Positions 13,355 to 15,153 of a stretch of DNA of 64,000 bases are shown piece after piece (positions within the stretch are counted from its first letter, which is position 1; each line of letters opens with the position of its first letter). A program made the position numbers and the translations under genes. The DNA is from Escherichia phage vB_Eco_T-01, in the sequence record PQ438391.1; one strand, given 5' to 3'. The notes under the pieces were generated by a model. That model saw nothing but the letters and a program-made list of their open reading frames with translations. It was not told the DNA's origin and searched no databases.

Positions 13355-13963
13355 ATGAAAATGCAAAGTGATTTCAATTCAATGTTTGAAGAGTTCCAAA
13401 GACAAGTTGATGTTCCAGACCAATTATTAAATGCTCTTAAACGTATGGCAGAAGGGCGTAATTATTATTGGGGTTCTTCATATGAAACTGATGAAAGTCT
13501 TTCTGGAAGATTTTCTAGAGGTAAAAAGTCTTTAATACGTCCTGGAATACTTATTAACAGCATTGAATCAATTCATTTATTAACATGCGATTTTGACGTT
13601 GAATTTACTGATTTTGTTTCTCCTGAATGGACGGTCTGTTATTTAAACGACGATTATGATTATCTCGGCGTTTATAGTTTAAGTGATGCATGGTTTAAAC
13701 GTAATTTACAAAAGTCAAATTTATTCTATATTGATACTACTGTAAAATTTCGGGGCAAGAAATATTTCTTTACTCTTATAGTTGATTCTGAAACTAAGCA
13801 TGAAAATAAGCGTATTCTTAGTAAAAAGAATATCTTAACTATTGTTGATGATCTTTTTGATAAATTCGTAGAAAATCCCAATTTTGAAAGCGATTTATTA
13901 CTAGAAAAATTTGTGAAGGAATGCAGAGAATATGTCAAAGCCATCAATGTATCTTCCAAGTAA
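13355..13963 (+). CDS. hypothetical protein, first of four genes sharing a C-terminal F-[VI]-x-[ED]-C-R motif
   Basis: 202 aa; ends ...EKFVKECREYVKAINVSSK. Confidence 0.5.
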   Translation: MKMQSDFNSMFEEFQRQVDVPDQLLNALKRMAEGRNYYWGSSYETDESLSGRFSRGKKSLIRPGILINSIESIHLLTCDFDVEFTDFVSPEWTVCYLNDDYDYLGVYSLSDAWFKRNLQKSNLFYIDTTVKFRGKKYFFTLIVDSETKHENKRILSKKNILTIVDDLFDKFVENPNFESDLLLEKFVKECREYVKAINVSSK

Positions 13964-14324
13964 ACCCTTAAAGTATGAATTAAAGCGTCAGATAATTTCT
14001 ACTGATGTATTAATAGGTCCTGTTATACTCATATCATTTGTAATTCTATTGATTATTGGAGGTGTTTTAGATGTTATGACTGATATTGATTCTGGCGAAA
14101 TACTGGTATTAATGCTAATTCTTCCATTAATAGTTCCACTTTTATTAGTACCTGTAAATTGGGTAGGATACTGGTATCAAGGAAGACATTATCGTAAACG
14201 CGTACGTGATTGGAAAGCACAGTGTGAAAAGATTAAAAAGGAACACCAGCTTAAACTTGCTGCGTATGAATTTGATGAAATTATGAAATTTGTTAAGGAA
14301 TCACGATGCAAAAGCCAAAACTAA
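13932..14324 (+). CDS. membrane protein, paralog family member
   Basis: 130 aa, two hydrophobic helices, ends ...KFVKESRCKSQN. Confidence 0.5.
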   Translation: MSKPSMYLPSKPLKYELKRQIISTDVLIGPVILISFVILLIIGGVLDVMTDIDSGEILVLMLILPLIVPLLLVPVNWVGYWYQGRHYRKRVRDWKAQCEKIKKEHQLKLAAYEFDEIMKFVKESRCKSQN

Positions 14325-14668
14325 ATAAAGTCAAATATTCGCTTTCTGAGTCATTTTTAATTTTTGCTGTGGCGTTGGCTGCAGCTCTTGCGGGTAGTCT
14401 TTTTGGATTGTTAATTGACTGTCTTATTTTAAACATTGACGGCACAGTAAATATAATAGAAGTTTGGAGTGAACTTCACTATACTAAAATTATTTCATTA
14501 TTTTCATTCTTTGGTATCATGTTATATTTTCATTATGATAATTTTAAAATAAATTGGCAAAGAAAAAAAGATTACAAAATACAATTAAAAGAATATAATA
14601 GCTACATGTCTTATATTGAAAAAGAATCAATGGAAGAGTTTGTGAGTGATTGTAGGAAAATTAAATGA
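14306..14668 (+). CDS. membrane protein, paralog family member
   Basis: 120 aa, hydrophobic helices, ends ...EFVSDCRKIK. Confidence 0.5.
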   Translation: MQKPKLNKVKYSLSESFLIFAVALAAALAGSLFGLLIDCLILNIDGTVNIIEVWSELHYTKIISLFSFFGIMLYFHYDNFKINWQRKKDYKIQLKEYNSYMSYIEKESMEEFVSDCRKIK

Positions 14669-15153
14669 TTTTAAAAACTCGCTGGTATGATTTAGATGAT
14701 GGGGATGATGGCATTCCAGTTGATAGAGTTGACTGGAATGGCTGTTCCGAAGATATGAAAAATTTGTTGATTAGGGAGTTTAGAATGGGATATCAAGCAG
14801 CTAAGCCATCTATTATAACAGATGATAAATTCGTGTGTATTCATAATGGTCGCGCTAAGTTAACGAACGCTGATTGGTTCACAGATAAGATTATGATTCT
14901 GTGGTATATTATTAGTTTTCCTGTGACATCATTCGTATTTTACTTTTTTATAAAAAATCCAATGGACAGAATAGGAGATTGGATTATTTTAACCATACTT
15001 GTTAATATTTTTACAGCAGCAATATTATCTGGGATATGGTACACGTTCATTGAAATGCCATGGCGTTTACGTAGGCAGCAAAAGATTTTTGATGAAAAGA
15101 AATATACTCAAAATTTAAATAATTTTATCACCGAATGCAGGAAATTAAAATGA
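14665..15153 (+). CDS. membrane protein, paralog family member
   Basis: 162 aa, hydrophobic helices, ends ...NFITECRKLK. Confidence 0.5.
   Translation: MILKTRWYDLDDGDDGIPVDRVDWNGCSEDMKNLLIREFRMGYQAAKPSIITDDKFVCIHNGRAKLTNADWFTDKIMILWYIISFPVTSFVFYFFIKNPMDRIGDWIILTILVNIFTAAILSGIWYTFIEMPWRLRRQQKIFDEKKYTQNLNNFITECRKLK

Follow-up and report, generated by a model that had tools for sequence, protein, structure and literature searches.

Among described junction elements, the closest to those considered here are the PeSL elements of T4-type phages, ~100-bp intergenic units that combine a sigma-70-type promoter with a G/C stem-loop (PMC2839356, PMC4122927). The locus that we analysed is a cluster of four tandem genes, e.5, e.4, e.3, and e.2, at positions 13,355 to 15,153 of a 64,000-nucleotide stretch of Escherichia phage vB_Eco_T-01 (record PQ438391.1; "the window" means this whole stretch), whose products share a short motif, F-[VI]-x-[ED]-C-R, near their C-termini. 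Like PeSL, the junctions of these genes are short boundary repeats in a hyperplastic region that carry the Shine-Dalgarno sequence and start of the downstream gene, and, as with PeSL, recombination between two copies (here those flanking e.2) removes the gene between them, which was found in 43 of the 60 best-matching records. Unlike PeSL, the repeat is 9-21 nt of coding sequence, conserved as amino acids and with no promoter, stem-loop, or spacer, such that the locus shares the deletion effect of PeSL and none of its defining parts.

For the shared protein tail itself, the closest functional analogy may be the capsid targeting sequence (CTS) of the T4 internal proteins, an N-terminal peptide that functions late, in the prohead, and is removed by cleavage. 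Each is a short peptide at one end of otherwise unrelated small proteins from one genome region; unlike the CTS, the tail is C-terminal and is found on early, mostly membrane-embedded proteins, and its invariant Cys-Arg is absent from the CTS. The membrane members of the cluster are also similar to Imm (T4 superinfection immunity) in being small, early, apparently dispensable, and equipped with two membrane helices. By sequence or profile, e.2-e.5 have no similarity to any named family in Pfam, PHROGs, NCBIfam, or PADLOC. T4 itself carries the same genes in the same order beside nudE and e, with its e.2 frameshifted twice, whereas e.2 of the window is intact. About half of the T4 genes have no assigned function, mostly in hyperplastic regions such as the e.2-e.5 locus, and a shared, strongly selected tail ties four genes of this kind, plus more in relatives, into one testable unit.

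A C-terminal tail common to e.5, e.4, e.3, and e.2

The four genes are quite probably members of an early family that diverges fast, has expanded in tandem, and is in part mosaic, and that is defined by a cytoplasmic C-terminal helix. An earlier reading of the letters alone (the sequence-only reading) had listed four open reading frames (ORFs) with the motif, and all four are present: FVKECR spans residues 186-191 of 202 in e.5, FVKESR residues 120-125 of 130 in e.4, FVSDCR residues 112-117 of 120 in e.3, and FITECR residues 154-159 of 162 in e.2. That the ORFs end in the motif holds for e.4, e.3, and e.2 (5, 3, and 3 residues before the C-terminus, respectively) and needs amending for e.5, which continues for 11 residues beyond it, read from the 32-nt overlap with e.4. 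The strict consensus likewise applies to e.5, e.3, and e.2, but e.4 has Ser in place of the motif Cys (Ile in Mosigvirus). A Cys does occur two residues further on in e.4, where its codon forms the e.3 start (cgATGc) and only Cys, Trp, or a stop is possible. At their N-termini, the four proteins (e.5 to e.2) begin MKMQ, MSKP, MQKP, and MILK.

The motif is specific to this cluster. Translated in six frames, the window contained five matches to the pattern F[VI].[ED][CS]R, four of them in these genes, and the looser [FW][VI]..C[RK] had seven in the 2850 open frames of a ~166-kb whole-genome proxy (the window plus the remainder of the closest relative's genome), with e.5, e.3, and e.2 as the only real genes among them. 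A profile built from e.3 C-termini alone placed e.2 second (E 6e-4) and e.5 third (E 0.028) among 347 window ORFs. Numbered with F/W as position 0, Cys as +4, and Arg as +5, the tail consensus is [LMFI]-x-x-[FW]-[IV]-x-[EDG]-C-R-[KNG]; among 48 distinct sequences, position -3 was L, M, F, or I, position 0 was F (45) or W (3), +1 was I or V, +3 was E, D, or G, +4 was C in 43, +5 was R (45) or K (3), and +6 was K, N, or G.

In related phages, e.5, e.4, and e.3 are limited to Tequatrovirus and Mosigvirus, and the Mosigvirus proteins, 37-53% identical, have the tails FIMECREYVKA, FVKEIRCKS, and FIKECRK, respectively. The reach of e.2 is wider: its Dhakavirus and Gaprivervirus orthologs (30-46% identity) all end in LN.FI.ECRK, in genomes without e.3, e.4, and e.5. 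An exhaustive e.2 profile search of 1.84 billion representatives returned 21 proteins, and the distant relatives (E 1e-31 to 2e-4) retained an N-terminal W..LD[DE]...G......W..C and two membrane helices and ended in [FW]I.[GED]CR[KN]. By these comparisons, no part of the family is better conserved than the tail. A related-locus scan of viral contigs found six loci only, and a word-indexed protein search with e.3 found close relatives only.

A second tandem array was recovered on the metagenomic T4-like contig L020 (74-1634), where three two-helix proteins (L020_A, L020_B, and L020_C) are followed by an e.2-like protein and then a Nudix gene. In order, the two-helix proteins end in FVKECRGQ, FIREVRNAKTR, and FIDDCKNWR and the e.2-like protein in FIKMCRNS; the middle pair start with MRKP, comparable to MSKP of e.4 and MQKP of e.3. 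In addition, a two-helix protein of 101 residues with the ending FIKECRGK was found in Mosigvirus JK42 (JK42_00128) and on contig L024, and soluble proteins of ~100 residues in L021, L023, and L025 end in FIKECRRNQKCLVN, FIKMCRGNQNVT, and FVLYCRGKQNESRT, their post-motif tail being read from the overlap with the next gene, as in e.5. Chance resemblance of four short peptides could be suspected from a core of only six residues and from a search pattern written after the sequences were seen, but its probability is practically nil: it is refuted by the exclusivity of the motif to the cluster across the whole proxy in six frames, by single-family profiles that retrieve the other families at the top of the list, and by conservation in orthologs and in the second array.

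Profile comparisons support homology of this C-terminal module, i.e., the last ~20 residues. With hhalign, the C-halves of e.2 matched the JK42_128/L020_A group (95%, P 3e-8), the e.3 group (93%, P 4e-7), the soluble ~100-residue group (87%, P 4e-6), and e.5 (59%, P 9e-5), and the e.3 group matched e.4 at 22% (P 9e-4), while reversed-sequence controls gave P 2e-3 or weaker. The aligned stretch was always the last 13-29 columns. Beyond the tail, we found a weak full-length match of e.3 to the e.4 family phrog_2604 (E 0.004), and, in a 1228-ORF database, single-sequence searches identified L020_B and L020_C as clear paralogues (E 3e-16) whose next matches were all e.3 orthologs, linked L020_A to the e.2 C-halves and JK42_128, and gave other carriers of the motif as all top non-self matches for every two-helix query (full-length, weak). 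An iterated profile over the same ORFs collected almost only motif carriers down to E 0.6. These results are suggestive of common descent of the two-helix bodies, and e.5 and the soluble ~100-residue proteins look like mosaics that carry the tail module.

The proposal of a paralogous family, made in the sequence-only reading, can therefore be kept for the last ~20 residues (P 1e-4 to 3e-8) and is plausible for the two-helix bodies, but not for e.5, which is not a membrane paralogue. Pairwise BLASTP among the four proteins returned the e.3/e.2 tail (E 0.005) and, outside the tail, only a composition-prone membrane match between e.4 and e.3. Given the weak similarity outside the tail and the unrelated soluble domains among its carriers, the four tails might instead be convergent, having arisen independently in genes unrelated by descent as a short linear motif for binding a single abundant host protein. 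We find this quite unlikely: the genes are adjacent and in the same orientation; size, topology, an M-x-K-P N-terminus, and a basic R-K-[KR]-x-[YF] after the second helix are common to the two-helix members; the tandem paralogues L020_B and L020_C also match e.3; and the similarity extends over 13-29 columns, more than the six-residue core.

Membrane topology and a possible docking role of the tail

By Kyte-Doolittle windows, e.4, e.3, and e.2 have two hydrophobic helices apiece and e.5 has none, in agreement with the earlier assignment of the last three ORFs as membrane proteins. By the positive-inside rule, all three are predicted to be N-in/C-in, with 4-11 Lys+Arg in the N-termini, 9-14 in the C-tails, and 0-1 in the loops, which contain 2-3 acidic residues. 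The plan of e.4, e.3, and the C-half of e.2 is the same: a short basic N-terminus, two membrane helices with an acidic loop, a basic stretch, and a ~30-residue charged helix followed by the motif. In e.2, this unit is preceded by a cytoplasmic N-terminal domain (residues 1-75) with a conserved W..DD.D.GI..DW..C.

An AlphaFold2 model of e.2 from a diverse alignment (predicted local distance difference test score, pLDDT, 74) consists of a small N-terminal domain and helices 74-95 and 103-160; as the latter is unbroken, the second membrane helix would extend ~30 residues into the cytoplasm and end in the motif. For e.5, the model was poor (pLDDT 58.5), with the motif inside its last helix (181-196), and the protein is a soluble one that shares only the tail and is not a membrane paralogue of the others. 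Comparing the e.2 model with viral structures returned orthologs and weak matches only, the latter including a 124-residue protein and a 126-residue protein of phage HY01 that are e.3/e.4 candidates by length alone. Separately, P0159, a 223-residue soluble protein, was found to be built of the N-terminal domain of e.2 (L.GDDDG..GI......DW) repeated three times in tandem, which indicates that this domain can occur alone. We also observed in e.4 a second, weaker motif-like stretch, RDWKAQCEKIKK (window 14200-14245, residues ~90-104; EWKVQC in Mosigvirus), located just after the basic region and aligned with NNFITECRKLK of e.2 in one hhalign run.

What the tail may do is less certain than what it is. 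Positions -3, 0, +1, and +4 (Cys) lie on one helical face and are followed by the terminal Arg-Lys, an arrangement that fits a docking helix, and we tentatively propose this role as a possibility that falls short of being probable. Docking tails would bind a common partner or one another and would gather soluble and membrane members into one assembly on the inner side of the membrane shortly after infection, with tight translational coupling supplying the members together. The partner would not be exclusively another member of the T4 quartet, because the e.2 tail is kept in the absence of e.3, e.4, and e.5. For the favoured reading overall, our confidence is moderate and leans to the positive side.

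Several observations weigh against it. Similarity beyond the last ~20-30 residues is weak; a full-length match between e.4 and e.3 (81%, 110 columns) dropped to 22% once the e.3 profile was broadened, and a reversed-sequence control for one pair of membrane proteins came to P 4e-4. For the tails, the hydrophobic moment did not significantly exceed that of shuffles (p 0.08-0.2). A fixed four-subunit complex is excluded by retention of the e.2 motif without e.3-e.5 together with the many phages without e.2, and essential cysteine chemistry cannot apply to every member, since e.4 lacks the canonical Cys and its L020 counterpart lacks any Cys. Finally, knock-downs of all four genes by CRISPRi-ART were called "Not Fit" in the laboratory host (PMC11879866, supplement 15); this call is weak evidence because lysozyme e received the same one in that screen (PMC11879866, supplement 15).

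Two further candidates for the role of the tail were considered and not kept. An amphipathic membrane-targeting helix was set aside given the non-significant hydrophobic moment and the invariance of Cys-Arg, which is atypical of such helices, and a fixed four-cysteine metal site formed by four subunits does not, as a general model, agree with the missing canonical Cys of e.4 and the varying gene content. A broader version of the docking proposal, which we regard as rather doubtful, is that the Cys-Arg tail is a portable assembly or targeting tag for one destination, carried by at least seven small protein architectures, and thus an early membrane-side counterpart of the CTS. If so, several early proteins would form a hitherto unrecognised assembly on the inner membrane, perhaps linked by the invariant Cys through a shared metal or thiol bond, and genes would join or leave it by gaining or losing ~10 codons at their 3' ends. 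The tail peptide could serve as bait for a common partner, with Cys and Arg point mutants as clean controls, and natural variants (e.2-less, e.4::e.2 chimera, and e.3-deleted Mosigvirus-like phages, described below) show viable combinations.

Gene junctions and the level of selection

As had been noted from the letters alone, the nucleotides that encode the motif also carry the ribosome-binding site and start of the next gene, and we found this to be true at every junction. The motif codons always hold the next gene's Shine-Dalgarno sequence (AAGGAA, GAGGAA, AGGAAA, or (A/C)GAGGA), the following gene starts 0-4 codons past the Arg codon, and the successive overlaps are 32, 19, 4, and 4 nt. One could then argue that the motif is a by-product of RNA constraints, i.e., that the last codons are the next gene's initiation region (a U/A-rich stretch, Shine-Dalgarno sequence, and overlapping start) and that the peptide is merely translated. 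In line with this, the Shine-Dalgarno sequence is provided by Lys-Glu (AAGGAA), Glu-Glu (GAGGAA), Arg-Lys (AGGAAA), or Arg-Gly (AGAGGA, CGAGGA) codons, the motif stays within 0-4 codons of the following start although its own stop may be 3, 5, or 11 residues away, and the e.4 Cys at +6 is dictated by the e.3 start codon.

The codons themselves, however, argue otherwise. Tabulated in 16 loci of four genera, the motif is written with TTT/TTC for Phe, GTG/GTT/ATT/ATC for Val/Ile, TGC/TGT for Cys, and AGA/AGG/CGA/CGT for Arg; the only changes are at wobble positions, at first positions where they are synonymous, and in the free "x" codon, a pattern that indicates selection on the peptide, and Arg switches between AGR and CGN yet stays Arg. 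A ribosome-binding site makes no use of Phe, Val/Ile, or Cys and cannot account for these residues or for Arg being kept across codon families. In e.2 of Dhakavirus and Gaprivervirus, Arg is CGT and the Shine-Dalgarno sequence has shifted to the Glu-Glu codons with the peptide unchanged. Moreover, the motif is found at no other gene end in the ~166-kb proxy, and similarity of the junction DNA is at background. We therefore judge the by-product explanation improbable, and the tail is kept by selection on amino acids.

The same data bear on the proposal of a conserved junction sequence, which found no support as a DNA or RNA element: placed in register, the four junctions are identical at 17-26 of 46 nt, the best alignment obtained locally between the e.3/e.2 and e.2/nudE junctions was equalled or beaten by 26 of 1191 other windows, and the DNA is not similar beyond the motif codons. 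A DNA repeat extending into the 5' ends of e.2 and nudE (GCTGGTAT, at similar offset) was considered and dropped, as its local alignment was not above background. No promoter element, stem-loop, terminator-like site, or spacer was found at any junction; the genes overlap by 4-32 nt and so leave no intergenic space, promoter-like matches within the cluster fall in coding sequence (background ~21 per shuffle), and the GGGG...CCCC hairpin upstream of e.5 is the only one in the region. Of the junction element as originally conceived, there remain the Shine-Dalgarno sequences held by the motif codons and a short repeat that is the crossover point for e.2 loss, but the DNA similarity is at background and conservation follows the codons.

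Natural variants illustrate how this repeat is used. In the 43 records mentioned above (~36 distinct phages, including PST, ZN18, PP01, RB32, RB33, and UFV-AREG1; example L007 4953-5385), e.2 is precisely absent and e.3 is joined to nudE, the crossover lies inside a shared TG[CT]AGGAAA within an exact shared stretch of 9-12 nt, and the hybrid e.3 ends in CRKLK like e.2 and overlaps nudE. As e.2-nudE synteny is old, loss of e.2 is more parsimonious than gain. UFV05 (P0143) and UFV11 (L017 1501-1821) have an in-frame chimera, e.4(1-31)::e.2(88-162), joined within the first membrane helices at the microhomology TCCTGT; the rest of e.4, the whole of e.3, and the N-terminal domain of e.2 are missing from it. 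Two Mosigvirus-like loci (L009 4880-5060; L013 2820-3000) have an internal e.3 deletion of ~250 nt, after which the last 30 codons and a short N-terminal ORF, out of frame, remain. In the T4 reference (L001 3036-3961, i.e., NC_000866 67035-67960, minus strand), e.2 is annotated with 102 aa and has two frameshifts, the remainder, including the second membrane helix and FITECRKLK, being present but displaced, compared to the intact 162 aa of the window; other T4 records list e.2a/e.2b, or msp7 plus a gap. Together, these variants show that single members are dispensable and interchangeable in nature, and short direct repeats at gene ends have served as crossovers for gain or loss of whole genes.

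It might thus be asked whether the repeated gene end is in essence a recombination linker, a coding analogue of PeSL cassettes kept for cassette-like gene gain and loss in the hyperplastic region. The precise absence of e.2, with its crossover in TG[CT]AGGAAA and hybrid CRKLK end, would be expected of such a linker, e.5 and the soluble ~100-residue proteins look like foreign N-terminal domains placed on the family tail and next start, and PeSL-mediated shuffling has been documented in RB49 and phi1 (PMC2839356). Nevertheless, we give this explanation little credence: the exact shared stretch is 9-12 nt against an overall DNA similarity at background, promoter, stem-loop, and intergenic spacer are absent from the junctions, and the UFV05/UFV11 deletion used an unrelated 6-nt microhomology while another deletion is internal to e.3, so that microhomology deletion is generic in the cluster. 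Nor can residues that stay conserved at 30% identity be explained by selection for evolvability. The RNA-element and linker readings describe real secondary properties that do not explain the conservation; a stretch of ~30 nt has three roles, as protein motif, as ribosome-binding site of the next gene, and as microhomology for cassette-like gene loss.

Locus, annotation, and neighbouring genes

The window derives from a Tequatrovirus: its 1.8-kb cluster region was matched by 504 phage records at an identity of at least 90%, the best being Shigella phage Phaginator (98.8%, Tequatrovirus). By the comparison with the T4 e ORFs that the sequence-only reading had suggested, the four genes are T4 e.5, e.4, e.3, and e.2: the annotated T4 genome places them in this order before nudE and then the lysozyme gene e, at the same position between e.6 and nudE/e (Table 1). 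Identity to the T4 orthologs is ~90-98%, and ~75-88% for e.2 against the frameshifted T4 copy. Matching records by tblastn numbered 643 for e.5, 643 for e.4, 605 for e.3, and 533 for e.2.

Table 1. Positions of genes, motif codons, repeats, and predicted helices in the e.5-nudE region (window coordinates unless given in residues)
Feature	Position	Strand	Remarks
hairpin between e.6 and e.5	13319..13334	+	GGGGCTTCGGCCCC; same hairpin annotated in T4 record L13089
e.5	13355..13963	+	202 aa, ORF; ortholog of T4 e.5; phrog_2607
e.4	13932..14324	+	130 aa, ORF; ortholog of T4 e.4; phrog_2604
e.3	14306..14668	+	120 aa, ORF; ortholog of T4 e.3; phrog_2330
e.2	14665..15153	+	162 aa, ORF; ortholog of T4 e.2; PHROG 2203
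nudE (Nudix hydrolase)	15150..15590	+	translationally coupled to e.2; alternative in-frame ATG at 15135
e.5 motif codons TTT GTG AAG GAA TGC AGA	13910..13927	+	AAGGAA likely Shine-Dalgarno of e.4 (ATG 13932)
e.4 motif codons TTT GTT AAG GAA TCA CGA TGC	14289..14309	+	e.3 ATG (14306) spans Arg/Cys codons
e.3 motif codons, then AGGAAA (Shine-Dalgarno), ATGA stop/start overlap with e.2	14639..14668	+	
e.2 motif codons, then AGGAAA, ATGA overlap with nudE	15124..15153	+	
imperfect 21-nt direct repeat flanking e.2	left 14648-14668, right 15133-15153	+	
e.4 membrane helices	~aa 26-46, 56-78	+	cytoplasmic tail ends FVKESRCKSQN
e.3 membrane helices	~aa 16-40, 60-78	+	tail ends FVSDCRKIK
e.2 membrane helices	~aa 77-97, 107-129	+	long helix ends LNNFITECRKLK

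The genes are named msp4 to msp7 (e.5 to e.2) in an older T4 record, and T4 e.2, e.3, e.4, and e.5 are Y06M, Y06N, Y06O, and Y06P in UniProt. Each of the four proteins matched its own PHROG over the full length (E 1e-59 to 1e-108), with no function assigned. Labels precomputed on orthologs in Pfam are name-only families (PF26896, Phage_T4_Y06M, for e.2 and PF26876 for e.5), and two hits, one in the chimera P0143 and one in a gene lying at the L024 edge, lead us to infer that PF26873 (Phage_T4_Y06O) represents e.4. Searches of Pfam (a local copy without models PF26896 and PF26876), NCBIfam, PADLOC, and PDB sequences with the four proteins gave no significant match, and the PADLOC models, which cover membrane proteins of anti-phage defence and effectors, gave none at E up to 0.1. 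For the candidate roles named in the sequence-only reading (superinfection exclusion, abortive-infection evasion, and lysis timing), the one result at hand is indirect, namely that CRISPRi-ART in a single laboratory host made no fitness call. No paper on e.2-e.5 was found in the literature by gene symbol or UniProt name, nor any earlier description of the shared C-terminal module, the databases keeping four separate families. Functional names in some records were rejected: "sulfurtransferase" for e.3/e.4 (some GenBank records) has no Pfam or NCBIfam match and is a propagated annotation only, and "DNA primase" (one e.3) and "phosphoserine phosphatase" (e.5, other records) are names without profile support.

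The promoter-like site nearest to the cluster lies upstream of e.6 (12664-12692), and the same promoter is annotated in T4 record L13089; its position and that of the hairpin suggest that e.5 to nudE form one early transcription unit. In T4, transcripts of e.2-e.5 were classed as early and all four proteins were detected (PMC9697503, supplements 4 and 6). At the distal end, two starts can be considered for nudE: the ATG at 15135 (T4 RefSeq, MQEIKMKT...), contained in the codons for Glu-Cys of the e.2 motif (gaATGc), and that at 15150, which shares ATGA with the stop of e.2, is preceded by AGGAAA at 7 nt, and gives the short form annotated in some records.

Phages without e.3, e.4, and e.5 have a conserved ~228-residue protein (MNGPKTF...EFPMEGW) before e.2 (loci L010, L011, L015, L016, L019, L021, and L023-L025), followed in most loci by nudE and e, sometimes after one small ORF, in an order conserved across genera. 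Small acidic proteins of 60-100 aa with W-[VQY]-x-S-S-x-x-C at the extreme C-terminus make up another tandem family, often encoded just downstream of a gene with the motif (L002 3357-4151; L010 115-783; L011 124-786; L021 817-1008; L023 471-653; L025 1088-1285). Its hosts are Mosigvirus, Dhakavirus, Gaprivervirus, and metagenomic T4-like phages, and none was found in the ~166-kb Tequatrovirus proxy.

As for CTS-like sequences, internal-protein-like genes beginning MKTY.EF[IL].E occur in the window at 10984-11547, 16112-16393 (inside the listed ORF 16097-16393), and 16878-17351, and this N-terminal sequence is absent from e.5, e.4, e.3, and e.2. It resembles [NE]F[IV].[ED] of the motif, a pattern of 4-5 residues that is expected by chance several times per proteome, and the resemblance of EFITEA, in the gene at 16878, to NFITEC of e.2 is probably due to chance.

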